A DNA stretch of 12,274 nucleotides, from positions 1-12,274 of the forward strand of contig JBBIJB010000058.1 in assembly GCA_037446215.1 (NCBI GenBank). Reading direction: 5' to 3'. This stretch comes from Armatimonadota bacterium (GTDB taxonomy: Bacteria; Sysuimicrobiota; Sysuimicrobiia; Sysuimicrobiales; Humicultoraceae). The translations under genes were made by a program, and so were the position numbers. The notes below the pieces were generated by a model. It made no database searches, was not told where the DNA came from, and saw only the letters and a list, made by a program, of their open reading frames with translations. Each line of letters opens with the position of its first letter. The stretch's first letter is position 1. Below, piece after piece: positions 1 through 12,274 of this stretch.

Positions 1-70
1 TCTCGTCCACCACCCGCTCAATGGTGGCGATCTTGGGAAGGTAGATGTTGTCGGGCTGCTGCGGGCTCAT
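1..70 (-). CDS. 5' fragment of FAD/NAD(P)-binding oxidoreductase subunit (sulfhydrogenase gamma HydG / AsrB-like); runs off the window edge
   Basis: ATG at 70-68 overlaps the TGA of the upstream gene (ATGA). Manual translation gives MSPQQPDNIYLPKIATIERVVDE; the 'N.YLP..A.I..V.DE' start is typical of HydG/AsrB, which normally follows HydB/AsrA. Not in the ORF track. Confidence 0.7.
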   Translation of the reverse strand, partial: MSPQQPDNIYLPKIATIERVVDE

Positions 71-1167
71 CGCGCCTCATTCCTCGCCGTCATCGCTCTT
101 CGGATGATCTCAACAACGCTCGGCATGCCGACGTCACCATGGCAGACCTCAACGCAGCGTCCGCACCCTACGCATGCCACCGACAGCTCGCGCTGAACGA
201 AGTAGTGCGACAGCTTGCGGAAGAACCGCCTGTTCCGCCGGTCGTGAACCGCCTTCCGAGGATTGTGCCCTCCCGCCATCCGGGTGAAGCCGGTGAGCGC
301 GCACGCATCCCACAGCCGTATGCGCTCTGTGATCTCGTCTGTCGTGCTCCGGTCGGTGACCGTGAAGCATGTGCAGGTCGGGCAGACGTAGCTGCAACCG
401 CCGCACTCGAGGCATCGGTTTCCGATCTCCTCCCAGGTCTTCTCGCTCACCTCGCCGAGACTGATCAGGCGGGACGCGACCGAGTACCAACTCGTCACGT
501 CCTTGAAGCGCTTGCGAACCTCGGAGAGCATCTCCCTGCGCCTGGCCACGTGCTCCTCGGTAGCCCTCCGGCATGCCGGGTGCGAAAGCACGGCCTCTCC
601 CGCCGGGGAGCCCGCAACGATCATGTACTCGTCGGCGAGGCGCATGAGCTGGAGGTCGAAGTGCTCCCTGGCAGCCGGGCCTGTGTCGGCGCAGACGCAG
701 AAGCAGTCGTCGTCGATGTCGAGCTCGGTGTCGGTGCAAACCACGTTGACCAGGAATAGGTTCCTGCGGAGCTTCTCGTAGTAGACGTCCCTGTACTCCC
801 TACCGAGAAAGAACCGGTCGAGGTGGCCGATGGCGGCAAGGTCGCAGGAGCGGATGCCGAAGATGGCCACCCTCGGCTCATCCTGCGGCACGTCTATCCG
901 CAGCTGACCTCCGCCGGTTCTCCTTCCCGCGAGTATGGTCCGCCTCGCCGTCAGCAGCCGGTGGATCTGGGGGAGGACGTACCGCTTGGGCGGGTAGTAG
1001 GGGTTCGGCAGGTGGAGCTGCACGCTGTCGCGGTTCGCGTCGGTGACAACGTCGAAGAGCGTGTCGCGGCCCCTACCGAAGAACGGAGCTACGACCTGGT
1101 AGCCGTCCCTGCGGAGGAGATCTACGATCTGCAGCACGTCCGCTCTGTCTATTACTCTCGCCCGCAT
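67..1167 (-). CDS. 4Fe-4S dicluster protein, sulfhydrogenase beta (HydB) / anaerobic sulfite reductase AsrA / FlxB-like family
   Basis: Motifs FGIRSCD, C-x10-CFC, CLECGGCSYVCPTCTCF, WDAC...FTRMAGGHNPR and CVGCGRCVEVC. ATG at 1167 lies just after the upstream stop (1170-1172), with GAGAGGG upstream as a possible SD. Confidence 0.85.
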   Translation of the reverse strand: MRARVIDRADVLQIVDLLRRDGYQVVAPFFGRGRDTLFDVVTDANRDSVQLHLPNPYYPPKRYVLPQIHRLLTARRTILAGRRTGGGQLRIDVPQDEPRVAIFGIRSCDLAAIGHLDRFFLGREYRDVYYEKLRRNLFLVNVVCTDTELDIDDDCFCVCADTGPAAREHFDLQLMRLADEYMIVAGSPAGEAVLSHPACRRATEEHVARRREMLSEVRKRFKDVTSWYSVASRLISLGEVSEKTWEEIGNRCLECGGCSYVCPTCTCFTVTDRSTTDEITERIRLWDACALTGFTRMAGGHNPRKAVHDRRNRRFFRKLSHYFVQRELSVACVGCGRCVEVCHGDVGMPSVVEIIRRAMTARNEAR

Positions 1168-1169
1168 CT

Positions 1170-3206
1170 CTACACCCTCTCGACCCTGGCGCAAATCGGC
1201 CAGTCCGAGCTGCCCCCGGTGCTGTCCGACTCCCCGAAGATCTGGCCGATGACCTCGTGCAGGAAGAAGGGGATGAAGATCATCCCGCGCTTAACGCTGC
1301 CGGTCACGCGGGCGGTGCTCACGGCCGATCCCTTGGAGGTGGAGATCCTGACCTTGCCCGCATCGCGTACCCCGAGCTCCCGCGCATCGTCGGGGTTGAT
1401 ATCCACGAAGCCCTCCGGGTAGTCGAGCTGGAGGACCCGGTGCTCGCGCTTGAGCGTCTCGCTGTGCTGGACGAGCACGTTGTGGTGCCAGTAGTAGAGC
1501 GACCTGCCAATTATCAGGGCGAACGGGTACTCGGCGACCATGCACAGGCCGGCCATCTCCGGCAACGGGAAGGGCGCCAGCCTGAAGGGCTCGTGGGGTT
1601 CTTCCCCCGCGAACAACTGCGCCGTACCTAGGGGCCTGTCTGCCGTACAGGGCCACTGCCGCCCATACTCGCGCGAGAGGTTGTCGTAGCCGGCCGCCTC
1701 GTAGAACGGCACCGCCCGCCTTATCTCGTCCATCACCTGTGAGGATGAGGCGTACGACCACCGTGCGCCCAGCCTGTTCGCGACGCGAACGATCTGGTCC
1801 CAGGCGGGCAGGGGGCCCGGGGGAGGGTCTATGACCTTCTCGGCAATCTGTATGCGGCGCTCGGTGCTGGTGAAGGTCGCCCTCTCTTCCCCGAAGGCCA
1901 CTACCGGCAGGATCACGTCGGCGTGCCGCGCGGTCTCGGTCATGAACAGGTGCTGAACAACCAGGAACTCCAGCTTGTCGAGGGCCTCGACGATAGAGGC
2001 GCGCGCACCGGCCGTTGCGGGATCGTGGCGGTCGATCCACAGGGCACGAACCGAGCCGCTGGCCGCGGCCTCGATCATGCCTCGGGTGCTCAGGCCGGGC
2101 CTGGAGGGAAGGGGCGCCCCCCAGAGGGACTCGAAGCGCCTGCGGGCCGCCGCGTCGCTCACCGGTACATAGCCGGGCAGCCGATAGGGCTGCACTCCGA
2201 CGTCGCAGGTCCCCTGCAGGTTGTTCTGCTCGGCCAGGGGCATTACGCCCGCGCCCCGTTTCCCGATGTTGCCGGTCAGCAACGCCAGGCTCACTATGCT
2301 CCGAATCGTGTCGGCGCCGCGGGCCTCCGCACCGGTGGAGTACATGATCATGCCGCGTCCCCCGGAGGCGAAGGCTATGGCCGCGCTCTCGAGCAGGTCC
2401 GGGGAGATGTCACAGGCATCCGCCACCCACAGGACGTCGTAGGAGTGCACCGATGCGAGAAACTCCTCGTAGTCCTGACAGCGGCTCTTCAGGAACTTGA
2501 GGTCTGCCAGGCCCCGGTCCACGATCACCTTGGCCATCGCGCCGTAGAGCAGCCGGTCGGTCCCGGGCCTCGTCTGAAGGAAGAAGTCGGCGTGCTCGGC
2601 GATCCTGTGCCGCCTGGGATCGATCACGATCAGCTTCGCCCCGCCCATCTTCGCGCGGATCACCCGCCCGCCGATGGTCGGCAGCTGAAGGGCCAGGTCT
2701 ACGCCGTTCACCATGATTACGTCGCTCTGCTCGATATCGGCTATGGAGCAGGTGGCCGCGGGGGCACCCAGCATCTCCATGAGGACCTCTATGCTCGCGG
2801 AGCGATAGGCGCCCATCCCATGATCGACGTTGTTGGTGCCTACCACGGCCCTAGCCAGCTTCTGGAGCAGATAGGCCTCCTCGTTGGAGCAGCGGGGCGA
2901 GTTGACGAAGCCGATCGCGTCGGGGCCGTGCTCGCCGCGAATGTGCTTGAGGCGGGAGGCGATCAGGGTCGTGGCCTCCTCCCAGGACGACTCCTTGAAC
3001 CCGCCCCCATCGCGTATGAGAGGGTGCCTGAGGCGATCCGGTGAGCTGGCGACCTCGTGGACGTTCCAGCCCCGTACGCAGATCCGGCCCTGGTTGGCGG
3101 GGTGGGACATGCTCGGGTAGCCCCCGGTTATCCTGGAGCCGTCCTCCTCTAAGTAGATCCCGCACCCCACGCCACAGAAGGTGCACGTGGTCAGTATGTG
3201 CGCCAT
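1170..3206 (-). CDS. Formate dehydrogenase alpha (FdhF)-like molybdopterin oxidoreductase family protein with degenerate active site
   Basis: N-terminal 4Fe-4S motif CTFCGVGC...ICVRG, plus DRLRHPL, SWEEA, NEEAYLLQKLARAVVGTNNVD, IDPR, RPGTD, DVILP...TFTSTERRIQ and a C-terminal barrel (FVDINPDDARELG). No Tat signal. ATG at 3206 preferred; TTG at 3215 is possible. Confidence 0.85.
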   Translation of the reverse strand: MAHILTTCTFCGVGCGIYLEEDGSRITGGYPSMSHPANQGRICVRGWNVHEVASSPDRLRHPLIRDGGGFKESSWEEATTLIASRLKHIRGEHGPDAIGFVNSPRCSNEEAYLLQKLARAVVGTNNVDHGMGAYRSASIEVLMEMLGAPAATCSIADIEQSDVIMVNGVDLALQLPTIGGRVIRAKMGGAKLIVIDPRRHRIAEHADFFLQTRPGTDRLLYGAMAKVIVDRGLADLKFLKSRCQDYEEFLASVHSYDVLWVADACDISPDLLESAAIAFASGGRGMIMYSTGAEARGADTIRSIVSLALLTGNIGKRGAGVMPLAEQNNLQGTCDVGVQPYRLPGYVPVSDAAARRRFESLWGAPLPSRPGLSTRGMIEAAASGSVRALWIDRHDPATAGARASIVEALDKLEFLVVQHLFMTETARHADVILPVVAFGEERATFTSTERRIQIAEKVIDPPPGPLPAWDQIVRVANRLGARWSYASSSQVMDEIRRAVPFYEAAGYDNLSREYGRQWPCTADRPLGTAQLFAGEEPHEPFRLAPFPLPEMAGLCMVAEYPFALIIGRSLYYWHHNVLVQHSETLKREHRVLQLDYPEGFVDINPDDARELGVRDAGKVRISTSKGSAVSTARVTGSVKRGMIFIPFFLHEVIGQIFGESDSTGGSSDWPICARVERV

Positions 3207-3257
3207 GCTCGCCAACCTCGCAGGTGTTTGTGTGACATCCTCATCCGCCCGCAGCGG

Positions 3258-3926
3258 TCAGTCTGACTTCCCCAGCGCCTTCCGCTCCGTCTCGATCCAG
3301 GAGATCCACGCGTCCATCCCCTCCCCCGTCCGCGCCGAGAGGGGAAGCAGCGGCGCGTCGGAGACCTCCCGCAGCCCCGCTGCAAAGGCGTCGATCGAGA
3401 ACCCCGTAGCCTGGAGGAGGTCGATCTTGTTTAGGACCACCGCGGAGGCCCTCGCGAATGTGCTGGGGTACTTCAACGGCTTGTCGTCCCCCTCAGGTAC
3501 GCTGGCGATCACCACGCGCAGGTGCTCTCCCAGGTCGTAGGCGGTGGGGCAGACGAGATTCCCAACGTTCTCTATGAACAGCACCCTAATCTCGGCCAGC
3601 GGCAGACGCGGCAGGGCCGTCCGCACCAGGTTGGCGTCCAGGTGACAGGCGTCCCCCACCAGCCGGGTCTCGATCTGCACCACCGGAACCCCGCAGCGCC
3701 CTACGCGCTCGGCGTCCCGGCTAGTGGCCACATCCCCCTCGATTACGCCCATCGCCATCCGCGGCGGCATCACCGGCGCGGTCCTCTCGAGCAGCGCGGT
3801 CTTGCCGCTCCCCGGCGATCCGATCATGTTGATCGCCAGTATCCCCGCGCCGTCCAAGGTGGCCCGGACCTCCTCGGCCAGGGCGTCGTTGGCCTTCAGC
3901 ACACGCTCGACGATCTCGATTCGCAT
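3258..3926 (-). CDS. hypB: Hydrogenase nickel incorporation GTPase HypB
   Basis: GSPGSGKT P-loop, VIEGD, ACHLDA, ENVGNLVCP, EGDDKPLKYP, NKID and SARTGEG. ATG overlaps the hypA stop (TGATG). No His-rich N-terminal extension. Confidence 0.96.
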   Translation of the reverse strand: MRIEIVERVLKANDALAEEVRATLDGAGILAINMIGSPGSGKTALLERTAPVMPPRMAMGVIEGDVATSRDAERVGRCGVPVVQIETRLVGDACHLDANLVRTALPRLPLAEIRVLFIENVGNLVCPTAYDLGEHLRVVIASVPEGDDKPLKYPSTFARASAVVLNKIDLLQATGFSIDAFAAGLREVSDAPLLPLSARTGEGMDAWISWIETERKALGKSD

Positions 3927-4171
3927 CACGGCTCTCCCTGGACCCACTCGAGCTGCAGCTCGCGGCCGTCGGCGCGGCGCACCTCGAGTTCCGCGCTTCC
4001 AACGACCGGCCCCTGACGCAAGACCTCGAACGCAAACGCCAGCGCATCCGGAACCACGCCGCTGTACCGCCCCACGGCTACGCCAACGCTCTGGACGCTC
4101 TTCAGACCGTTGCGCCCCGCCACATCGGCCACCTGCCGGAGCAGCGAGTAGGCAATCGACACTTCGTGCAT
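3926..4171 (-). CDS. hypA: Hydrogenase maturation Ni metallochaperone HypA, short form (81 aa) lacking the Zn-finger domain
   Basis: Starts MHEVSIA (Ni-binding MHE). Also has VG.YSGVVPDALAFAF and C-terminal GRELQL. Directly coupled to hypB. Contains no cysteines. Confidence 0.9.
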   Translation of the reverse strand: MHEVSIAYSLLRQVADVAGRNGLKSVQSVGVAVGRYSGVVPDALAFAFEVLRQGPVVGSAELEVRRADGRELQLEWVQGEP

Positions 4172-4182
4172 CCCGCGCCGGG

Positions 4183-4998
4183 TCAGAACGTCTGGTTCGC
4201 AAGGGCCATCATGCCCAGGGTGTACCGCTCGAGCATGAGGGCCTGCCCCGGGCTGAGACGCACGCAGGCCCACCGCCAGTGGAACGCGAGCAGGTCGCCT
4301 ACCGTGGCGCTCTCCATCTCGGGGTCCGCGTCAAGCGGCCTCAGCACGTGCTCCGGGCGCAGATCGCCGAAGGCCAGGCGCCCGCCGGCGGTGACGATCG
4401 GCCGGTAGGAGACGGTGAATGCCCCCGGGTGAACCGCCGTAATCTCTCCCCAGCTTATCCTGCAGAGGTCGAGCGCGAGATCGCCCTGCGGCAGGCCGGT
4501 CCGACGCGAGACGTCGAAGACGTGGAAGGCGTGGTGTGCACGCGCGCCAGCGGGCGGCTTGCCGACCAGCAGTTCCATGGCGGAGCGGTTCAGTTGACCC
4601 CGGAACCTGTCGCTCAGGTGGCGGGCGTACAGTGCCCAGTCAACTCGCTCCAGGAGGTCGTTGCCTATCCAGTAGGCCTCAACAACGCTGGGGTGAAACG
4701 GGTCCGGTATCCCGCTCGAGTCGGCTATGAGCCGCAGATACGGATAGGCACCTGCGAATGCCCTGAGGTGGCGCCTCAGGGACTCGTCTCCCGATCCCTC
4801 ACGGATGGAGGCCAGCAACTCGGCGTTCGCGTCTCCGCCGCAGTAGCCGAGCCTGTTCGGCATATAGGCGAACCTGGCAAACAGAAGCATGCCCTCCAGC
4901 GGAGAGCCCGAAGGCTCCCCAACGACACCACCAGGTCGTCTTGTTCCCGTGGCGAGGTGTGTACCAGCACGCTTCAAGGATTCGTCTCCGCTTCCCAT
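4183..4998 (-). CDS. DUF6390-like uncharacterised protein (hydrogenase-maturation-associated); start uncertain (4998 or as late as 4890)
   Basis: LFARFAYMPNRLGYCG, FAGAYPYL..IA, DPF...VVEAYWIGN.LL, HHAFHVF, LDLCRISWG and GD....HW.WAC match my recollection of the DUF6390 family. Lies immediately upstream of hypA. Confidence 0.7.
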   Translation of the reverse strand: MGSGDESLKRAGTHLATGTRRPGGVVGEPSGSPLEGMLLFARFAYMPNRLGYCGGDANAELLASIREGSGDESLRRHLRAFAGAYPYLRLIADSSGIPDPFHPSVVEAYWIGNDLLERVDWALYARHLSDRFRGQLNRSAMELLVGKPPAGARAHHAFHVFDVSRRTGLPQGDLALDLCRISWGEITAVHPGAFTVSYRPIVTAGGRLAFGDLRPEHVLRPLDADPEMESATVGDLLAFHWRWACVRLSPGQALMLERYTLGMMALANQTF

Positions 4999-5017
4999 GC
5001 GAGTTGCCGATTACAGA

Positions 5018-5971
5018 CTACATACGGTCGGGGCCCGCCGAGTATCCGTTCATGAGAGGATTCGGGATCGAGGATCGTCCTACGCGAACGGCCGCGGCCT
5101 GCGGCCGCCAGCCCGTCCCGCCGGCATCGGCGGCCGCAGGGTTCAGCCAGATGTCGATGTCCCGGCCCACCGCCATCAGGCCCAGGGTGGTCAGGACGAT
5201 TGCCAGCGCCGGTGGAGCGGCCCACCACAGCCACGCGTCGGTGAGGAACAGCAGCGGATAGCCGAACGCCTGGTGAAGGGTCAGGCCCCAGCTCACGCGC
5301 CCGGGATCTGCCAGGCCCAGCAGCCCCAGCCCGGCCTCCATCACGATCGCCCATCTCAGGGTCAGGAGGAACTTGGTGAAGAGTATGGGCACTATCTCAG
5401 GGAGAATGGCCGTCCTCAATACCCTGGCCTCGGATGCCCCCAGCGCCCGGGCGGCCGCCACGTACTCCTTGGCCGCGGCGGACAGCACCTGGGCGCGAAC
5501 CACGCGCGCATACGCCGCCCAACTGATCACGAGGAGCGCGGCGGCCACCGACCAGATCCCGGGCCCCAGGAACACCACGAGCAGCACTACGAGCGGAACG
5601 CCGGGGATCGCCAGGAAGAGGTCCACCACGGCCAGGACTACCTCGCGCCCTCTAGGGGCCACCGCCGACGCAGCGCCGACCGCGGCGGCAAGGAGCGTGG
5701 AGGAGGCAGCCACCAAGAAACCCACCAGGAGAGAGGTCCTCGCTCCGTGGAGGAGGTGGCTGTAGAGGTCCTGGCCGAGGACATTGGTCCCGAGCAGCAG
5801 GCCGGGCGCCGGCGGCATGACGGGCGAGCCCATCGTGCGATCGGGCGGGTTGTGAGCGAGCAACGGTGCCCCTGCGGCGAGCGCTACCACTGCCAGCAGC
5901 ACGGCCGTCCCTGCTGCCGGCGTAGCGTACCGCCGCCAGAGGCGGGGACCTGTCGATGTCCGATACGTCAC
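5018..5971 (-). CDS. ABC transporter permease, DppC/OppC/NikC type
   Basis: LLGTNVLGQDL...GARTSLLVG, EAA loop YVAAARALGAS, EAGLGLLGL and WLWWAAPP. GTG at 5971 overlaps the upstream TAG. The ORF-track start at 6406 is an over-extension. Confidence 0.9.
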   Translation of the reverse strand: MTYRTSTGPRLWRRYATPAAGTAVLLAVVALAAGAPLLAHNPPDRTMGSPVMPPAPGLLLGTNVLGQDLYSHLLHGARTSLLVGFLVAASSTLLAAAVGAASAVAPRGREVVLAVVDLFLAIPGVPLVVLLVVFLGPGIWSVAAALLVISWAAYARVVRAQVLSAAAKEYVAAARALGASEARVLRTAILPEIVPILFTKFLLTLRWAIVMEAGLGLLGLADPGRVSWGLTLHQAFGYPLLFLTDAWLWWAAPPALAIVLTTLGLMAVGRDIDIWLNPAAADAGGTGWRPQAAAVRVGRSSIPNPLMNGYSAGPDRM

Positions 5972-6933
5972 TACCGTCCCCCTACCCTGGGGTCCAGCCT
6001 CGTGCTTACCAAGTCGAGCAGCGTATTCACCGACAGGACGGCGAGGCTCGAGACAAGGAAGACCCCCTGCATCAGCGGGTAGTCGCGCGCACCTATCGCC
6101 TCGAACAGCAGCGATCCCATGCCGGGGTAGGCGAAGATCCTCTCCACGACGGCCGCGCCGGCCACCGCGGCACCCAACCTCAACCCGAACAGGGTCGCAA
6201 CGGGCGGGAGCGCATTCCTCAAGGCATGCCAAACCACCCGCCCGGCCGGCAGTCCCTTCGCCCGAGCGGTAACCAGGTACCGTTCTCCCATCACGGGGAT
6301 GAGCGCGTTCCGGACCAGCAGGGCAAAGGCAGGGGCGAGCCCGGCCACCAGCGTCAGCCCGGGGAGCGCGGCGTGCCACGCCGCGTCCGCCGCGATGCGC
6401 GCCCACCCGCCGGAATCGATGAAGGGCGTCAACGCGCCACCGGCGGGGAAGATACGGCTCCTCGAGGCAAGCGTCACGATGAGGAGCATGGCGACCAGGA
6501 ACTCGGGCAGGGCTCCCACCCCCACCGATGCGGCCATCGCGGCACGGACGCCGGGGCGGTGGCGGTGCCAGGCCGCGGCCCAGCCCAGCAGACCGCCCAG
6601 GGCTGCGGCGAGGACCACCGCCCCTCCGACGAGGAACAGGGTCCAGGGAAGGCGCTCCGCCACGATCGTGCCGACCGGACGGTGCGATGTTAGAGACCAG
6701 CCCAGGTGGCCTCGAGCCAGCCCGAGGAGGTACCTCTCGAACTGATCGGCAAGGGGAAGATCGAGGTGGTAGGTGTCCACCAGCGCGCGATGCGCCGCTG
6801 CCGGCAGAAGGAGGGCGTCGTCGCCGCCCGGCGTCGCGGGGCTACCGGGCAGCATCCGAGGAACGGCGAAGTTGAGCACCACCACCGTCAACGCGAGCCC
6901 GGCGAAGCGCGCCAGACGCAGCGCCACGGTCAT
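5971..6933 (-). CDS. ABC transporter permease, DppB/OppB/NikB type
   Basis: LNFAVPRMLPGSP, ERLPWTLFL, EAA loop YLVTARAKGL...HALRNAL, VERIFAYPGMG, RDYPLMQG and LDPRV. Confidence 0.93.
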   Translation of the reverse strand: MTVALRLARFAGLALTVVVLNFAVPRMLPGSPATPGGDDALLLPAAAHRALVDTYHLDLPLADQFERYLLGLARGHLGWSLTSHRPVGTIVAERLPWTLFLVGGAVVLAAALGGLLGWAAAWHRHRPGVRAAMAASVGVGALPEFLVAMLLIVTLASRSRIFPAGGALTPFIDSGGWARIAADAAWHAALPGLTLVAGLAPAFALLVRNALIPVMGERYLVTARAKGLPAGRVVWHALRNALPPVATLFGLRLGAAVAGAAVVERIFAYPGMGSLLFEAIGARDYPLMQGVFLVSSLAVLSVNTLLDLVSTRLDPRVGGR

Positions 6934-6941
6934 CGTCCGCC

Positions 6942-8480
6942 CTAGCGGGAGCCTATCAGGGCGAGCTTGTTCTCCACGAGCGGGATCCCGTTCATGATTC
7001 CCCCGGGGACATCCACCGGGCGCAGCCTGCGGCTGTCGTGGACCCAGTAGAACCGGCGATAGTAGAGGGCAAGCGTAGGGAGCTCATCGGCCAGGATCTC
7101 CTGCATCCGCGAGATCAGCGCGCGGCGTGTCCCCGCGTCGACCGATCGCGCCTGCTCGGAGGCCAGCCGCAGGAACTCGGCGTGGTCGAAGCCCGGCGAC
7201 TGCCCGAACAGGTTGGCCTCTCCCCCGGCAAACCACCTTCGGAGGTAGTCGGGATCCCCGCCTGCCCCGATGTGGAAGGTGAGCGCCATCTGGAACTTCC
7301 CCTCCGAGACGAGTGCTGCGCGCGTGCGGGCATCGACGGTCCGGACGGTGACCTCCGTGCCGGCGCGCCTCAGCATCTCTTGTATCGGGACCACCACCGG
7401 AGACGGGCTGGACAGCAATTCCACCTGCGGTGCGCTGTGGCCGGCCGCCATCATGAGGCTCCGTGCCTGAGCCGGGTCGTTGGGATAGCCGCGTACCCGG
7501 GGAGCGTACCACCTGTCGAACGGCGAGACCACGCCGGGATTGCCAGGTATCCCCGGCCCCCGCGTCATCAGGGTGGCGAGCTGAGTCCTGTTGATTGCAT
7601 GTGCGACGGCCCGGCGCGCCTCGCGCCTGTCGAACGGCGGGCGCGAGAGGTTGAAGAGCAGCCGGGCGATCGAGAGCGGCTCGCTCTGCCACACCTTCAA
7701 GAAGGGGTGCGAGGAGAACGCCGGCACCACGTCGTAGGTGTCCGCCATCGCCGCGTCGACCTGACCGTTCTGAGCGGCCAGCACCTGTCGCTCCGTCGGG
7801 ATCATCGTGTACTGAATCTCCGAGAAGAGCGGCCTGCCCCGGAAGTAGCCCGGGTTGGCTCGCAGGCGGTACTCCCCGCTGCCGGGCCGGTATTCGGCCA
7901 GCACATACGGTCCTGTTCCGGCGGCCATCTCAATCGACTGGGCCTTGCGGGGCTCGCGCACCTCCTTCCAGAGGTGCTCAGGCACGATCGGAACCACCCC
8001 GGCGACGTCCTCGATGAAGGGCGCGAACGGGTCCGAGAGGACGAAGGTGACGGTGCGCGCTCCTTCGGCCCTGACAGACTGGACCATGCCCGTGTCTGTC
8101 CAGACGAACGGGTGCTCTCGGTAGTACTCGAATGAGAACTGGACGTCGCGGGCCGTGAAGGGCCTGCCGTCGTGCCACCGTATCCCGGAGCGGAGGACGA
8201 AGGTGTAGCGCCGGCCGTCAGGCGATACCTGCCAGGAGTCGGCCAGCCAGGGGATGGCACCGCCGCGGTCCTTCCACACCAGGGTGTCGTATATGAGCGA
8301 GAGCCGCACGAGTCCTCCGGGACCCAGGGTGGAGGCGGCAAAGGGCGTGGGGAATCCGACATCCGTCCACCATGTCAGGCGGAGCGCACCAGACGGCGTC
8401 TGCCCGGCGGCCACGGAGGCGGCGCACGCGACGGCAAGCAGGATCGAGGCCACGGCGATAAGCGTTCTTGCGCGGGTCAA
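6942..8480 (-). CDS. ABC transporter substrate-binding protein, family 5 (NikA/DppA/OppA-like); nickel uptake inferred from context
   Basis: N-terminal signal peptide, IYDTLV, PWLADSW, LRSGIRWHDGRPFTARDVQFS and GTGPY. TTG start with GGAGGT SD at 8490-8495. Confidence 0.92.
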   Translation of the reverse strand: MTRARTLIAVASILLAVACAASVAAGQTPSGALRLTWWTDVGFPTPFAASTLGPGGLVRLSLIYDTLVWKDRGGAIPWLADSWQVSPDGRRYTFVLRSGIRWHDGRPFTARDVQFSFEYYREHPFVWTDTGMVQSVRAEGARTVTFVLSDPFAPFIEDVAGVVPIVPEHLWKEVREPRKAQSIEMAAGTGPYVLAEYRPGSGEYRLRANPGYFRGRPLFSEIQYTMIPTERQVLAAQNGQVDAAMADTYDVVPAFSSHPFLKVWQSEPLSIARLLFNLSRPPFDRREARRAVAHAINRTQLATLMTRGPGIPGNPGVVSPFDRWYAPRVRGYPNDPAQARSLMMAAGHSAPQVELLSSPSPVVVPIQEMLRRAGTEVTVRTVDARTRAALVSEGKFQMALTFHIGAGGDPDYLRRWFAGGEANLFGQSPGFDHAEFLRLASEQARSVDAGTRRALISRMQEILADELPTLALYYRRFYWVHDSRRLRPVDVPGGIMNGIPLVENKLALIGSR

Positions 8481-8574
8481 GGAACTACCACCTCCACGGC
8501 TGAGTCGGGGGCGGCCGTGCGTGTGTCGCGGGCGCTCTGCCCGGCGCGGACGGATGGCTGCGGGAGCCTCAGGC

Positions 8575-8793
8575 TCAGGCCTGCTGCATCTCCTGCCAGA
8601 TCTCTGCGATCTGGGTGGCCTCTTCCGCGTCGATCTCGCGGATCGCGGCCCCGTACGCCACCAGGACGTGGTCTCCCGGCTTCAGGCCTTCGACGAGGGT
8701 TGTGCTGATCGTACGCACTCCCTCCAAACCCTCGGCCACGGCTCGATCCGAATCGAGTATCTCGGTTATGCGGTACGGCAACGCAAGACACAT
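8575..8793 (-). CDS. hypC: HypC/HybG/HupF family hydrogenase maturation chaperone (72 aa)
   Basis: MCLALP N-terminus (Cys2) and PGDHVLVAYGAAIREIDAEEA. True start is the ATG at 8793, not the ORF-track start at 8943. Confidence 0.88.
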   Translation of the reverse strand: MCLALPYRITEILDSDRAVAEGLEGVRTISTTLVEGLKPGDHVLVAYGAAIREIDAEEATQIAEIWQEMQQA

Positions 8794-8805
8794 GGCTCTC
8801 GGTGA

Positions 8806-8836
8806 AGTATCGCACACCCCACCCGGGGCAAGGCAA
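8806..8836 (-). promoter_or_regulatory. Possible extended -10 promoter for the hypC-ABC-hyp operon
   Basis: Minus strand reads TGTG-C-GATACT, 12 nt upstream of the hypC ATG, with TTGCCT 19 nt further up (suboptimal spacing). hypC has no clear SD. Motif resemblance only. Confidence 0.25.
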
Positions 8837-8859
8837 TACCCTGCCTGTCCGATTGACGC

Positions 8860-9037
8860 GAGAGGGTCCGGGGTGATCTCTGAGCGGATAGCCGGCTCTC
8901 CCGTGAGAACCGCCCTGGCAGGGTGGCGTCGCAGTCTCCGCATCGGTTGTCCGACGGGGGGTGAGGAGGGGCTGCTCCACCACCCTGGCCAGGCACGTCT
9001 ATCTGCCGGCAGCGGCCGCCCGGCGCCGCCGCCTCTC
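8860..9037. ncRNA. Candidate structured intergenic RNA (~180 nt), family unassigned
   Basis: Nested complementarity: 8914-8926 with 8980-8993 (13 bp, one bulge), 8860-8865 with 9032-9037, plus small internal hairpins. Confidence 0.25.
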
Positions 9038-9041
9038 TACC

Positions 9042-9767
9042 TCAGCCGATCCTGCCGGGCACCATCCGGCTCCACGCCCTTGAGTAGGTAGCGTAGGGAC
9101 GCCGGCTACGCCTGACGCCCTTCTGCTGCTCCGGGGCGCCGGCCAGGTGCAGGACCGGGAACCCGCGCTCCATCAACACCTCTACCAGATGCAGCGGGTA
9201 GGGAGCGTCCACGCGCACCACCGCCAAGACGCGTCCGTCCCGCCTGTAGGTTGCCAACGACGTCAGGGCTATGCCGGCGGAGTCCACGACGGAGGCCATC
9301 GCCGCGATGGGGCTGGCCTGACCCGACAGGTCTACCACCAGCCGTGTCCCGCCCTGGCGAAGCCCGGTCAGCTCTATGAACGCCTCGAAGAGGTCGCTCT
9401 CCGTGATGATGCCCACGAGGGAGCGCCCTTCGATCACGGGCAGCGCACCGATCTTGTCCCTTCGCATTATCACCGCGGCGGCCTCGATCGGAGCATCGGG
9501 TCCGATGGTCACCGGATCCGGCGTCATGAGATCGCCCGCGGTGGCCTCCATCAGCGCCTCTGGGACCTCGAACTCAACCGGACCCGAGGCGCCCGGGGGG
9601 TGCGCCCTCATCAGATCCGTCCAGGTCGCGATGCCTGCCAGTCGCTTCCTTCTCATCACTGGAAGCCTTCGAATCCCGTGCCTGCGCATGGCCGCTACCG
9701 CGTCGGCCAGCGTGGCCGTCGATTCGACCGTGACAACCGGATGGGTCATCCGGTCGCGGACAAGCAT
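9042..9767 (-). CDS. CBS-domain pair plus ACT-like domain protein (AcuB-like)
   Basis: MLVRDRMTHPVVTV, IRRLPV, MTPDPVTI, KIGALPV...LVGIITESDLF, followed by GTRLVVDL (ACT-like region). The last ~25 aa look like a non-conserved tail. Confidence 0.88.
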   Translation of the reverse strand: MLVRDRMTHPVVTVESTATLADAVAAMRRHGIRRLPVMRRKRLAGIATWTDLMRAHPPGASGPVEFEVPEALMEATAGDLMTPDPVTIGPDAPIEAAAVIMRRDKIGALPVIEGRSLVGIITESDLFEAFIELTGLRQGGTRLVVDLSGQASPIAAMASVVDSAGIALTSLATYRRDGRVLAVVRVDAPYPLHLVEVLMERGFPVLHLAGAPEQQKGVRRSRRPYATYSRAWSRMVPGRIG

Positions 9768-9786
9768 CGTCAGCGCACCCCGTCTC

Positions 9787-10290
9787 CTAGTCGTGTCCCA
9801 TCTGGTCGCCCAGCGCCAGCGCGTTCAGCGCCTCGCGATCCGACAGGTGGCGATGCAGAAGCGCGCAGTAGATCTCCTCTTCCTTTCGCCAGTGAACCTC
9901 GACCAGGGCCTTGACCTGGTACCCCAGGATCCTGGCGGCATCGATCAGTTCGGGGTCGCGCTCGCCTCCCTCGATCCTGCGGACCAGCCCGGAGAACACC
10001 TCCACACGCGCGACTATCTCGCGGTGATCGGCAAGCATGCACGCGTTCGGATCGCCGTGGCGCCTGAGGAGATCGGCGAGGGCCGGATAGAACGTGAGCT
10101 CCTCCCACTCCGCATGGGGCAGGAGGATCCTCTGGAAGAAGCTGTCGGTCTGTGCGAGTGGGCCTGTCAGCGCCGGGTCCGCGTCACCGCGCAACCTGTC
10201 GAGGAGCTCGGTCAGAGCCGTGAGCCCCGCGTCCAGCTGGGAGTGCTCACGCCTGTATGACTCGAGGAGCTTTTCCTTTGCGCTCTCCAT
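9787..10290 (-). CDS. Hemerythrin-like / HHE cation-binding domain protein
   Basis: H...HxxxE...H...HxxxE pattern: RREH, PHAEWEE.TFYP, MLADH, VHWRKEE. Confidence 0.85.
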   Translation of the reverse strand: MESAKEKLLESYRREHSQLDAGLTALTELLDRLRGDADPALTGPLAQTDSFFQRILLPHAEWEELTFYPALADLLRRHGDPNACMLADHREIVARVEVFSGLVRRIEGGERDPELIDAARILGYQVKALVEVHWRKEEEIYCALLHRHLSDREALNALALGDQMGHD

Positions 10291-10329
10291 CGTTTGCTAC
10301 CCCGCCGCCCGAGGCAGGCCGGCACCCTC

Positions 10330-10358
10330 ATCCTAGATCCGCGAGGAGGGCGTGCCAT
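10330..10358 (-). promoter_or_regulatory. Possible sigma70-type promoter for the hemerythrin-CBS genes
   Basis: Minus strand ATGGCA (10358-10353) - N17 - TAGGAT (10335-10330), in the 101 bp gap upstream of the hemerythrin ATG. Confidence 0.3.
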
Positions 10359-10391
10359 CGGGTAGGGGACCTATTCTGCGCTGCCGCGCAC

Positions 10392-10841
10392 CTACGCTGC
10401 TGAGGTGTGGCGCCGGATCAGCACCCAGGCCATGGGTAGAAGGAGCAGCCAGAGGGCGGCGCTGGCCGCGCACAGGGCGCACACCGCCCGCAGGACCGCG
10501 ACCTGGAGCCAGATCAGGTAGAGGGAGAACGAGGCGCCGAACAGGCAGAGGCCGAACAGCGCCGTCGTGATCCACGGCCTGGGAGCGCCCCGCAAGCCCG
10601 CCGCGAAGAGCGGCGCAACAACCAGGTAGAGGAGCAGACCCCAGGCCGCGGTCGGAAGACCCAGGAATCGCGAGTACCGGCTCGCCGCCACCTCGGCGCA
10701 CGCTCCGACAAGACAGACCGGAGGCAGGGCCTGGTAGGCGGAGACGGTTAGGTAGCCCGACACGCCGATCCCGACCAGTGCCAGCGCCAGCCCAACACCC
10801 CACGGCCCGCCTGCCCCGGCGAGAGACGGTTCCCGTCTCAT
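10392..10841 (-). CDS. Vitamin K epoxide reductase (VKOR) family membrane protein
   Basis: Four hydrophobic segments, loop cysteines CLVGAC, V..S.YS.FLGLP and active-site CALC. ATG at 10841 follows the DsbA-family stop (10843-10845) with a 1 nt gap. Confidence 0.92.
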   Translation of the reverse strand: MRREPSLAGAGGPWGVGLALALVGIGVSGYLTVSAYQALPPVCLVGACAEVAASRYSRFLGLPTAAWGLLLYLVVAPLFAAGLRGAPRPWITTALFGLCLFGASFSLYLIWLQVAVLRAVCALCAASAALWLLLLPMAWVLIRRHTSAA

Positions 10842-10842
10842 G

Positions 10843-11505
10843 CTAGCGGCGGCGCGCGGACTCGATCGCCTCACGGAAGACCTCAACCGGCTGTGCGCCG
10901 ACCAGGTACTGCCCGTCCACGAAGCTCGTCGGGGTTCCCCTCACGCCCAGGCGGACTCCCAGATCGAGGTCTGCCTGTACGCGTTGGCGCGTCTGCCCCG
11001 TGCGCAGGCACTGGGCAAACCGCGCCGTCTCCAAACCGACTTCCTTCGCCGCGGAGTCCAGGTCCCCGGAGCCCCTCAACTCCCCGCGTGACAGCCGGGC
11101 GAAGAGCGCGTCATGATAGGCCCAGAACCGCCTCTGATCCGCGGCGCACTCGCTGGCCTCGGCCGCCTGCTCCGAGACCGGTCCCAGAACCGGGAAGTTC
11201 CTGTAGACTATGCGCACGGTTCCCTTGTCCACGAACTCCGAGACGATCTTCGGCTTTATAAGCAGGGCCAGATCGCCGCAGTACTTGCAGCGGAAGTCCG
11301 AGAAGACCTCGATCGTAACCGGCGCGTCGGGACTCCCAAGCTCCTTCCCACCCGCCTCGGGCTTGGTCTGCACAGGCGCGACCGCTGCGGGAGGCTTGGA
11401 GGTCACCCAGTGGATGGCCACCGCGGCCGCGGCTGTCGCGATGGCAACGAGGGCGACTATCAGGGGAAGCGAAGGCCTGGCGCTTGGCTTTGAGCGCCGC
11501 TTCAC
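10843..11505 (-). CDS. DsbA-family thioredoxin-fold protein with N-terminal membrane anchor
   Basis: GSPDAPVTIEVFSDFRCKYC (CxxC), YRNFP, ASECAADQ..FW.YHD.LF and cis-Pro loop GVRGTPT. GTG overlaps the usp stop (GTGA). Confidence 0.92.
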   Translation of the reverse strand: MKRRSKPSARPSLPLIVALVAIATAAAAVAIHWVTSKPPAAVAPVQTKPEAGGKELGSPDAPVTIEVFSDFRCKYCGDLALLIKPKIVSEFVDKGTVRIVYRNFPVLGPVSEQAAEASECAADQRRFWAYHDALFARLSRGELRGSGDLDSAAKEVGLETARFAQCLRTGQTRQRVQADLDLGVRLGVRGTPTSFVDGQYLVGAQPVEVFREAIESARRR

Positions 11506-11957
11506 TGCGGCCGCACCGACCGGACCGTGAAGACGGGCATGGGCGCATGCCTGATTATGTGCTCGGCGACGCTGCCGAACAGCAGGTGGGCGAGGCCGGT
11601 ACGCCCGTGGGTGCCCATCACGATGAGGCCGGCGCCCAGCTCCTGGGCAACGGCAAGGATCTCCTGGCGCGGTGTGCCCTCACGGACCATGGGGCTAGCC
11701 GCGGGGATCCGGGCGGCGAGCCGGGCCATCTCCGAGCGGGCCTCTCCGCGCATCTCCTCGAGCAGAACCTCGGGCGGCGGCGGCGCGAGCACTCCCCCAG
11801 GCCCCCCGACGATCGCGCTCACCGAGGTGTCCAGCACGTGCAGCAGGTAGATCTTTGCGCCAAACGCCCCGGAGAGAGCCTCAGCCCACTCGGCGGCCGC
11901 CTCGGACCCGGCTGAGAAGTCCACCGGCACGAGGATCGTCTGGATTCGTGGTGGCAT
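11502..11957 (-). CDS. Universal stress protein (UspA family, single domain)
   Basis: ILVPVDFS, LLHV and LIVMGTHGRTGLAHLLFGSVAE (ATP-binding type motif). AGGAGG SD at 11965-11970, 7 nt before the ATG at 11957. Confidence 0.95.
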   Translation of the reverse strand: MPPRIQTILVPVDFSAGSEAAAEWAEALSGAFGAKIYLLHVLDTSVSAIVGGPGGVLAPPPPEVLLEEMRGEARSEMARLAARIPAASPMVREGTPRQEILAVAQELGAGLIVMGTHGRTGLAHLLFGSVAEHIIRHAPMPVFTVRSVRPQ

Positions 11958-12075
11958 GCCTGTGCCTCCTTCGCTGTCACTCTGCACCCCTTCAGACCCA
12001 AGGCAATGATACCCGACAGCGCGCCGCTGGCAAGCCCGCCGATCCGCCCGGGCTGGCCCCGGGAGCGGCGCGGCA

Positions 12076-12274
12076 CTAGGGGATCTCCAGCGCCACCTTC
12101 ACCGCCCTGTGCCGCCGCTTGTCGAGAGCCACACCGACCGCGCGCCGATAGTCGGCCAGCGGGAAGCGGTGCGTGACCATCCGGCCGAGCCCTGCGCTTC
12201 CGTCGGCGATCAACTCCATCGCCAGGTCGACGGACCTGACACGGCGGCCCTCAACAATCTCAGTGGAGTAGGCG
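12076..12274 (-). CDS. 3' end of Zn-binding alcohol dehydrogenase / MDR family protein (partial)
   Basis: Manual translation: AYSTEIVEGRRVRSVDLAMELIADGSAGLGRMVTHRFPLADYRRAVGVALDKRRHRAVKVALEIP*. 'VTHRFPL..Y..A...A......VKV' is the typical MDR C-terminus. Not in the ORF track. Confidence 0.8.
   Translation of the reverse strand, partial: AYSTEIVEGRRVRSVDLAMELIADGSAGLGRMVTHRFPLADYRRAVGVALDKRRHRAVKVALEIP

Follow-up and report, generated by a model that had tools for sequence, protein, structure and literature searches.

A degenerate formate dehydrogenase-like protein encoded with HydB- and HydG-like subunits, and the group 4 [NiFe]-hydrogenase genes that adjoin it in relatives

The present analysis concerns a stretch of 12,274 nucleotides from an Armatimonadota bacterium (GenBank assembly GCA_037446215.1, contig JBBIJB010000058.1, positions 1 to 12,274), hereafter the window, and a trio of adjoining minus-strand genes at its low-coordinate end. 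These genes encode a protein resembling the alpha subunit of formate dehydrogenase (FDH; 1170..3206), an iron-sulfur subunit of the HydB/AsrA type (67..1167) and the beginning of a subunit of the HydG/AsrB type (1..70). Judged from its sequence, the FDH-like protein has none of the residues on which formate oxidation is known to depend, and in its relatives the trio leads directly into the genes of a group 4 [NiFe]-hydrogenase that is bound to the membrane and belongs to the formate hydrogenlyase (FHL) type, not to group 3b. We propose, with a probability of about one half, that the trio is the electron-input module of a Hyc/Hyf-type group 4 hydrogenase interconverting NAD(P)H and H2, with the dead FDH acting as an adaptor or wire. 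Operons of this pseudo-FDH type probably do not run on formate.

The FDH-like protein and its family

The FDH-like gene runs from an ATG at 3206 to a TAG at 1172-1170 and encodes 678 aa; its start was placed at 3206, and not at the TTG at 3215, because the consensus of the family begins MAHxLTTC. The protein matches three Pfam domains of enzymes carrying a molybdenum or tungsten bis(pyranopterin guanine dinucleotide) cofactor, namely Molybdop_Fe4S4 (PF04879), Molybdopterin (PF00384) and Molydop_binding (PF01568). Its best NCBIfam match is Fdh-alpha (TIGR01591), at 587.8 bits and thus below the curated equivalog cut-off of 666.25. The four-domain molybdopterin-oxidoreductase fold is present together with an N-terminal CxxCxxxC...C [4Fe-4S] motif: an AlphaFold (AF2) model built on a 37-sequence alignment, with a mean predicted local distance difference test (pLDDT) score of 77.3 and a predicted template modeling (pTM) score of 0.82, gave Foldseek template modeling (TM) scores of 0.83-0.84 to FdhH, to ForCE1 and to FdhF of Escherichia coli FHL. 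The cysteines of a single [4Fe-4S] site (C8, C11, C15 and C43) are retained, and are invariant or nearly so in the family.

The catalytic positions, read from alignments to the solved FDHs 9t1s_L (with selenocysteine, Sec), 7qv7_S (with Cys) and 8rqz_C, have all been replaced. The Sec/Cys ligand position is occupied by Tyr134, the His that follows the ligand by Arg135, the Arg of the PLRGQNNVQG motif by Ala325, and the Lys between the iron-sulfur cluster and the pterin by Arg45. We take the corresponding residues of E. coli FdhH to be SeCys140, His141, Arg333 and Lys44. The initial annotation of the window had already described this subunit as catalytically altered, and the replacements at Tyr134, Arg135 and Ala325 bear this out.

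These replacements are shared across the family. In a word-indexed search, 120 homologs were listed with identities of 58-100%; their sources include Armatimonadota, Omnitrophica, Verrucomicrobia and NC10. Among the 108 that could be parsed, the ligand position is Tyr in 91, His in 12 and Phe in 5, and never Cys; by eye, the remaining 12 of the 120 are alike at this position. The residue that follows is Cys in 49 of the 108, Arg in 40, Ser in 9, Thr in 4, Ala in 3 and Gly in 3. The Arg position holds Thr, Ala, Ser, Cys or Asn in 118 of 118 homologs and never Arg, the residue right after it (E326) is Glu in all 118, and the Lys position is Arg in 117 of 117. The FDH-like proteins of the family can be recognized by the signature NNVDHGxGxY...LxE[HQ]NNLQG.

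A column-by-column comparison of 21 family members with 41 real FDHs from control loci separates the two sets. Cys or Sec stands at the ligand position in all 41 real FDHs (seven times as an in-frame TGA) vs none of the 21 family members, and the real enzymes have Arg at the Arg position in 40 of 41 and Lys at the Lys position in 41 of 41. Conservation of 90% or more in the real FDHs is seen at 159 columns, of which the family keeps 77 and changes 82. The changes affect whole motifs: GxNT..HP has become GxDL..LP, MGxTQH has become TG--E through a 2-residue deletion, GENP has become R(Y/H)DP, and QD, EKxG and DW have become QH, EExV and AW. We take the changed motifs to be those that bind the pterin or molybdopterin guanine dinucleotide (MGD). 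Three further residues of the family, D170, R393 and E441, are invariant in its 21 compared members.

In a quick maximum-likelihood tree (IQ-TREE, midpoint root), with branch support from the Shimodaira-Hasegawa-like approximate likelihood ratio test (SH-aLRT) only, the family makes up one side of a branch with an SH-aLRT of 100, and the window's protein splits off first within it. A profile search of 1.84 billion representatives recovered the family as essentially one 50% cluster (P0003, P0186 and fragments). The same search returned other FDH-like lineages that have no Cys at the ligand position and keep most of the motifs conserved in FDHs; those without Cys or Sec are P0187, P0189, P0190, P0191, P0195, P0202, P0214 and P0221. 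Since such lineages exist, the catalytic residues have been lost more than once. The P0187-P0221 set may represent intermediate stages of FDH degeneration, and the window's family is the most degenerate Cys-less lineage among those seen.

A search for fused forms among proteins of 1188-3390 aa returned 64 matches; none belongs to the family and identities range over 27-39%, which is weak evidence. A 1046-aa open reading frame (ORF) joining FDH-like and HydB sequences in one family locus (L006) was considered as a fusion and rejected, as there are frame breaks in HydG, HycC and HycE of the same locus.

Partner subunits and gene neighborhoods of relatives

The HydB-like gene (366 aa; ATG at 1167, TGA at 69-67) codes for a protein matching Pfam Fer4_22 at 1.9e-28. 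In an alignment of 30 sequences it shows two CxxCxxCxxxC motifs and eight further invariant cysteines (C108, C144, C155, C157, C159, C265, C267 and C289). Among solved structures it has a single strong relative, the Pyrococcus furiosus sulfhydrogenase I beta subunit (9nez_B, 1.7e-33), and the protein's NCBIfam matches to ShyB, HydB and AsrA lie far below the cut-offs, for example 138 vs 690. The window holds the first 23 codons of the HydG-like gene, the rest of which falls outside it; the gene was recognized from its N-terminal likeness to the HydG-like proteins of relatives, with 10-15 of the 23 residues in agreement across 18 proteins in register. The relatives' HydG-like proteins carry Pfam NAD_binding_1 and DHODB_Fe-S_bind domains, are closest among solved proteins to the sulfhydrogenase I gamma subunit (9nez_C, 1.4e-59), and contain a GGxGxxP motif in 32 of 33 cases and the [2Fe-2S] Cys motif in all 33. 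In NCBIfam and the PDB the two proteins find their best relatives among group 3b beta and gamma subunits; since all scores are far below the equivalog cut-offs, they are more likely paralogs than members. Taken together, these features suggest a flavin- and NAD(P)H-type electron-transfer pair, with nucleotide use and specificity putative.

To place the trio in context, loci were taken from a scan of species-representative genomes that yielded at least 602 candidate stretches, 599 of them encoding a relative. The best 80 were kept: 37 family loci (L001-L037, 50-63% identity) and 43 loci of ordinary FDHs (L038-L080, 35-40% identity), which served as controls. The family is spread over at least six named phyla, its loci coming from Verrucomicrobiota (18), Acidobacteriota (9), NC10/Methylomirabilales (2), Nitrospirota (2), Lentisphaerota (2), Thermodesulfobacteriota (1), Chthonomonadales (1) and unclassified sources (2). 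Gene maps were drawn from ORF calls weighted by G+C at third codon positions, clustered and supplemented by tblastn with reference proteins; calls of the longest ORF gave many spurious ORFs in high-GC sequence.

In all 37 family loci the genes form, on one strand, a contiguous prefix of the order FDH-like, HydB, HydG, HycI, HycC/HyfB, HycE, HycD, HycF and HycG. HydB was found in 37 loci, HydG in 35, HycI in 35, HycC in 34, HycE in 32, HycD in 31, HycF in 30 and HycG in 28, and every shortfall coincides with the end of the locus sequence. The order FDH-like, HydB, HydG is found again in each of the 35 loci long enough to show it, so the arrangement of the trio is not a chance one. Neither of the outcomes that the initial annotation had named as refuting, downstream asrC, hdrABC or similar genes with no [NiFe] subunits or a lack of conserved synteny among homologs, was encountered in the loci surveyed.

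The hydrogenase genes themselves are of the FHL type. Full annotation of L037 with Pfam and NCBIfam identified the HycI protease, a NuoL/HyfB-like antiporter subunit, a 560-aa large subunit in which NuoC and NuoD are fused, a NuoH-like subunit, a HycF-like subunit with two [4Fe-4S] clusters and a NuoB-like small subunit. The best solved relative of the HycE-like large subunit is E. coli HycE (7z0s_E, 3.2e-126), and both NiFe motifs, RICGICGCVH and DPCFSCTDR, occur in every one of the 27 full-length HycE-like ORFs. A second HycC paralog occurs in four family loci. By coordinates, no room is left for a HycB-sized gene within the nine-gene cluster, where no HycB reference sequence was used as a query. 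In the window the corresponding genes past the HydG-like gene would lie beyond its end, as inferred from the relatives.

Such neighbors bring to mind an ordinary FHL, in which the FDH-like protein oxidizes formate and the complex makes H2. The closeness of the large subunit to HycE of E. coli FHL and the Fdh-alpha match speak for this, as does an acidobacterial 'fdhF, hyf operon', possibly of this family, that a preprint annotates as FHL (10.1101/197269). On the other side, none of the Sec/Cys, His, Arg and Lys positions keeps its FDH residue, the Fdh-alpha score falls short of its cut-off, and HydB and HydG occupy the place where HycB would be expected, which makes this explanation quite improbable.

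The neighborhoods also bear on the proposal of the initial annotation, a cytoplasmic group 3b hydrogenase of the HydBGDA type with a pseudo-FDH as its fifth subunit. The similarity of the HydB- and HydG-like proteins to sulfhydrogenase beta and gamma argues for it, the window's own downstream genes lie out of sight, and two loci show related arrangements: one family locus (L003) has a group-3-like set of HydB, HydG and large subunit upstream, and a control locus from Theionarchaea (L080, 172-7538) encodes a real 902-aa FDH, a HydB::HydG fusion of 672 aa, hydrogenase subunits of which the small one is of group-3 type and the large one has NiFe motifs, and a maturation protease. However, 35 family loci run on beyond HydG, and all of them continue with HycI and then group 4 genes; group-3 small or large subunits follow HydG in not one. 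The upstream HydB and HydG paralogs in L003 are only 26% and 38% identical to those of the family, and L080, apparently an FDH-linked soluble hydrogenase with the architecture that the earlier proposal envisaged, has a real FDH and stands outside the family. We consider a group 3b enzyme highly improbable. The altered FDH, its beta/gamma partners and the synteny with [NiFe]-hydrogenase and maturation genes stand from the earlier proposal, while group 3b identity and a purely cytoplasmic location do not. No signal or twin-arginine sequence is visible, as had been stated before, and the N-terminus of the FDH-like protein opens directly with its Cys motif; yet a membrane-bound complex with a cytoplasmic arm is to be expected, because the trio of the relatives leads into group 4 Hyc genes.

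Another possibility is that the trio forms a soluble oxidoreductase of its own, whose genes are merely transcribed together with those of the hydrogenase and which does not bind it. HydB- and HydG-like neighbors accompany a Cys-bearing FDH in 13 of the 43 control loci (L039, L045, L048-L051, L061, L064, L068, L070, L071, L074 and L080), in the order FDH-HydB-HydG in nine and HydG-FDH-HydB in four loci of Geobacter/Desulfuromonadales type. In 12 of the 43 control loci such a trio has no adjacent hydrogenase, which indicates that the module can stand alone, and neither HycI nor same-strand Hyc genes were found in any of the 43. Against independence, the family's nine genes are never separated in the 37 loci of at least six named phyla, the Hyc-type hydrogenase would have no electron-input subunit in the cluster without the trio, and the trio, its catalytic subunit being dead, has no evident reaction to carry out by itself. 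A free-standing oxidoreductase is accordingly judged improbable.

The control trios, with their Cys-bearing FDHs, lend support to the earlier idea that the family is a relic of a formate:NAD(P) module, and its use as an electron port is plausible. Twelve of the 13 FDHs from these trios sit in the three lineages nearest the stem of the family, a placement that depends on the midpoint root and is unproven. The most likely and simplest history is that an ancestral soluble FDH-HydB-HydG module, linking formate to NAD(P)+, became fixed to a Hyc/Hyf-type hydrogenase and that formate chemistry was lost. In four loci (L049, L051, L064 and L070) the FDH flanked in the order HydG-FDH-HydB bears Cys, and no hydrogenase lies near it; such FDHs are putatively NAD(P)-linked, and the literature search returned no characterization of the type.

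Several family loci carry further redox genes upstream. Directly upstream of the FDH-like gene and on the same strand, four verrucomicrobial loci (L007, L008, L010 and L029) encode an HdrA-like flavoprotein, a histidine kinase, a response regulator, a ferredoxin of 186 aa resembling HdrC and a CCG-domain protein of 296 aa resembling HdrB; these genes lie upstream of position 10001, or of 5635-5674 for L007 and L029. A hoxEFU(Y)H operon of group 3d type lies immediately upstream of the FDH-like gene, on the same strand, in the NC10-like loci (L002, 4508-9458; L005, 1285-6202; L030, 4497-9451), so that two different [NiFe]-hydrogenases are adjacent. Two loci show local irregularities. The HydB-like gene of L003 (12033-13106) has an in-frame TAG at codon 232 where the near-identical L004 and L036 have a sense codon, which is either a sequencing error or a mark of a pseudogene. 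In L010, a small unrelated ORF (21560-21971) follows hycF before the sequence ends, where hycG would be expected; it may encode a GxxExxY-type protein.

Proposed electron path and what weighs against it

In the proposed mechanism, the hydrogenase genes of the window's operon would lie just beyond its low-coordinate end. The HydG-like subunit would exchange electrons with NAD(P)H through flavin adenine dinucleotide (FAD) and its [2Fe-2S] cluster, and the HydB-like subunit would pass them onward through iron-sulfur clusters, giving a reversible path from NAD(P)H over HydG-like, HydB-like, HycF and HycG to the NiFe site of HycE. The role of the dead FDH would be that of a docking adaptor to HycF, and possibly of one link of the wire by way of its own [4Fe-4S] cluster, much like that of NuoG in complex I. 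Together, the dead FDH, HydB and HydG would stand in for the FdhF-HycB pair of E. coli FHL, so that NAD(P)H and H2 would be interconverted by an enzyme built on a membrane scaffold like that of complex I, with a cytoplasmic arm. The nickel transporter, hypC, hypA and hypB genes upstream would serve the maturation of the hydrogenase.

A number of points weigh against this path. The window stops 70 nt into the HydG-like gene, which leaves its own hydrogenase genes outside, and its FDH-like protein is the most divergent family member in the tree. The use of NAD(P)H, the direction of that use and the contacts between subunits are inferred only. Energetics are a further difficulty: textbook potentials put the standard cost of electron transfer from NAD(P)H to H2 at about +18 kJ/mol, so that outward ion pumping would be feasible only at very low H2, and the opposite direction, from H2 to NAD(P)H, would need no coupling membrane arm. 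The Hdr-like genes and the hoxEFU(Y)H operons found upstream in some relatives (L007, L008, L010 and L029; L002, L005 and L030) hint at other redox partners. Finally, the replacements in the FDH-like protein are themselves invariant (E326, R45, D170, R393 and E441) and could therefore form a new ligand site and not an empty pocket; a Cys stands one residue past the canonical position in 49 of the 108 homologs, where the window has Arg; and, as the full FDH fold and the Molydop_binding match persist, the loss of the cofactor is unproven.

Some of these points favor an alternative in which the FDH-like protein is a working molybdo- or tungsto-enzyme with a remodelled site and another substrate, delivering electrons to protons through Hyc and/or to NAD(P)+ through HydB and HydG. 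Retention of the whole four-domain fold, with TM scores of 0.83-0.84 to FdhH and ForCE1, the matches to both the Molybdopterin and Molydop_binding domains, the strict conservation of substituted positions (E326 in 118/118, R45 in 117/117) and the shifted Cys of the 49 homologs are all consistent with catalysis, and a low-potential substrate would lift the energetic awkwardness of a model based on NAD(P)H only. A catalytic ligand would be expected to be fixed, though, and in an operon that is otherwise invariant the ligand position varies among Tyr, His and Phe and its neighbor among Cys, Arg, Ser, Thr, Ala and Gly. Change in 82 of the 159 FDH-conserved columns, many of them in the motifs presumed to bind MGD and one involving the 2-residue deletion, argues in the same direction. 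No molybdenum-cofactor gene occurs among the gene clusters common to at least 3 of the 37 family loci, singleton ORFs being unannotated. On account of the weak points listed above, we hold the NAD(P)H-linked input module at the even probability given at the outset and a still-catalytic molybdoenzyme as unlikely, if less so than the other alternatives.

Genomic setting, known systems and implications

The window has a G+C content of 64-70%, and all of its convincing genes are on the minus strand. A hypA gene (3926..4171; ATG at 4171, TGA at 3928-3926) and a hypB gene (3258..3926) precede the trio. HypB (222 aa), the nickel-insertion GTPase, scores 242.9 bits against TIGR00073 (cut-off 121.2); its start at 3926 falls within a TGATG string, where hypA ends in a one-base overlap with it, and its stop is at 3260-3258. 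A gap of 51 nt (3257-3207) separates hypB from the FDH-like gene and one of 2 nt (1169-1168) the FDH-like gene from the HydB-like gene, which overlaps the HydG-like gene by ATGA at 70-67. These junctions are exactly as first read on the sequence. A scan of the window for promoters and terminators returned 2 and 3 sites vs 1.0 and 3.3 expected by chance, numbers that chance alone would explain, with no site of either kind between hypB and the FDH-like gene.

HypA is unusually short. It has the N-terminal MHE nickel-binding part and ends at residue 81, without the Cys-rich zinc site, so that Pfam HypA is matched over 1-68 of 112 positions and TIGR00100 at 51.1 bits (cut-off 88.1); the HypA of one relative (L020) is full length, with a match over 1-112 of 112. 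Between hypA and the permease genes lies a DUF6390 gene (4183..4890; Pfam PF19927, 4.7e-58), whose likely start, chosen among candidate start codons, is the ATG at 4890 with GGAGG ahead, the longest ORF reaching 4998. Its look-alikes in the Atlas are DUF6390 clusters (score 0.96-0.97), and two weaker archaeal Atlas clusters combine HupF_HypC and DUF6390 domains; the protein is a candidate accessory of hydrogenase maturation, offered as a lead.

Farther upstream, two permeases (6933-5971 and 5971-5018; Pfam BPD_transp_1), whose genes overlap by one base (TAGTG), and a family-5 solute-binding protein (8480-6942; Pfam SBP_bac_5) belong to an ATP-binding cassette (ABC) importer of nickel/peptide type, for which no ATPase gene was found in the window. 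They are preceded by a gene for a hypC/hupF-type chaperone of 72 aa (8575..8793; TIGR00074, 66.6 bits, cut-off 48). Upstream of hypC, the minus-strand region 9042-11987 encodes CBS-pair and hemerythrin-like proteins, a universal stress protein and a VKOR-family protein whose gene overlaps that of a DsbA-like thioredoxin, which is a redox- or stress-flavored neighborhood.

Of the characterized systems, E. coli FHL-1 (FdhF-HycBCDEFG; 7z0s, 7z0t) is nearest to the hydrogenase part. The relatives share with it the NuoC-NuoD fusion HycE-like subunit of about 560 aa with NiFe motifs, the HycC/HyfB-, HycD-, HycF- and HycG-like subunits, the HycI protease and an FDH-fold subunit of FdhF size (TM 0.83 to 7z0t_A). 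They differ from it in that this subunit has lost its catalytic residues, that HydB- and HydG-like proteins are encoded where HycB is absent, that the input module comes first in the gene order and that some loci have two HycC paralogs. P. furiosus sulfhydrogenase I (group 3b; 9nez, 9nf0) shares the beta/gamma domains Fer4_22, NAD_binding_1 and DHODB_Fe-S_bind, whereas the family's trio has no adjoining group-3 alpha and delta subunits and is partnered with a group 4 membrane-bound enzyme. The real FDH-HydB-HydG trios consist of the same three protein types, with the gene order shared in nine of 13 loci. Unlike the family, they keep the Cys ligand and the FDH-conserved residues and have no HycI or Hyc genes behind them, and their HydB and HydG are 27-33% and 34-46% identical to those of the family.

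NuoG/Nqo3 of complex I is a degenerate FDH domain in the NADH-input module of that enzyme. As in the family, an FDH-fold domain without formate chemistry is found there beside a flavin/NAD(P)H module on a membrane machine related to group 4 hydrogenases. The two differ in that the family's flavoprotein is of the PyrK/HydG and not the NuoF type and that its NiFe site is still present. The FDH-like protein also has no N-terminal 2Fe-2S or NuoG-type 4Fe-4S domains, with no Pfam match to Fer2_4 or NADH-G_4Fe-4S_3, and scores 131.8 bits against the NuoG model TIGR01973 (cut-off 470.05), so that it shows only weak homology to NuoG and is not a member of that family.

A comparable arrangement has been described in Saganbacteria, where an 'enigmatic' group 4 hydrogenase region includes a molybdopterin oxidoreductase that defied classification, cooF, asrA, asrB and Mrp-like subunits (Matheus Carnevali et al. 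2019, PMC6349859, 10.1101/328856). Phylogeny could not place the molybdopterin protein as an FDH, and its authors suggest an 'oxidoreductase module' of undetermined function (PMC6349859). By that description, a group 4 [NiFe]-hydrogenase likewise adjoins an FDH-like molybdopterin protein and AsrA- and AsrB-like genes; the family differs in its Hyc/Hyf-type set without cooF, the molybdopterin proteins having been compared by description only. Elsewhere, Méheust et al. describe a 'Mbh-Mrp-oxidoreductase type' whose function is not known (10.1101/765248), HydDB gives FHL for 4a and 'formate-coupled (putative)' for 4f, with no group 4 class in its table that has NAD(P)H as partner (PMC5037454), a Methylocystis preprint calls group 4f uncharacterized (10.1101/2025.08.29.672306), and the acidobacterial annotation as FHL mentioned above is that of Hausmann et al. 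(10.1101/197269). A full-text literature search returned no characterization of the trio-Hyc arrangement, although supplementary figures, which fall outside such a search, may show the same operon.

The arrangement is an FHL-type hydrogenase with a different, partly dead input module, widespread and apparently uncharacterized. Going further, we tentatively suggest that it constitutes a widespread energy-converting [NiFe]-hydrogenase class of its own, as yet uncharacterized, in which NAD(P)H, and not formate, CO or ferredoxin, is coupled to H2 and the acquisition of NuoG and the NADH module is replayed; we regard this as possible, but on balance somewhat doubtful. With Fdh-alpha as the best match and Hyc/Hyf-like neighbors, genome models would credit soil, peat and groundwater bacteria with formate-driven H2 production, against which the missing catalytic residues argue. 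If the proposed mechanism is true, the operons that automatic annotation assigns to FHL in Acidobacteriota, Verrucomicrobiota, NC10 and Nitrospirota of soil and peat would consume no formate, and the pyridine-nucleotide pool, H2 and the membrane potential would be joined by a new physiological link. The family may then provide a living counterpart to the way in which the NADH-input module of complex I arose, repeating independently the gain of NuoG and the NADH module by an ancestor resembling formate hydrogenlyase; the real FDH-HydB-HydG relatives and the partly degenerate FDH-like lineages would offer possible stages for comparison.

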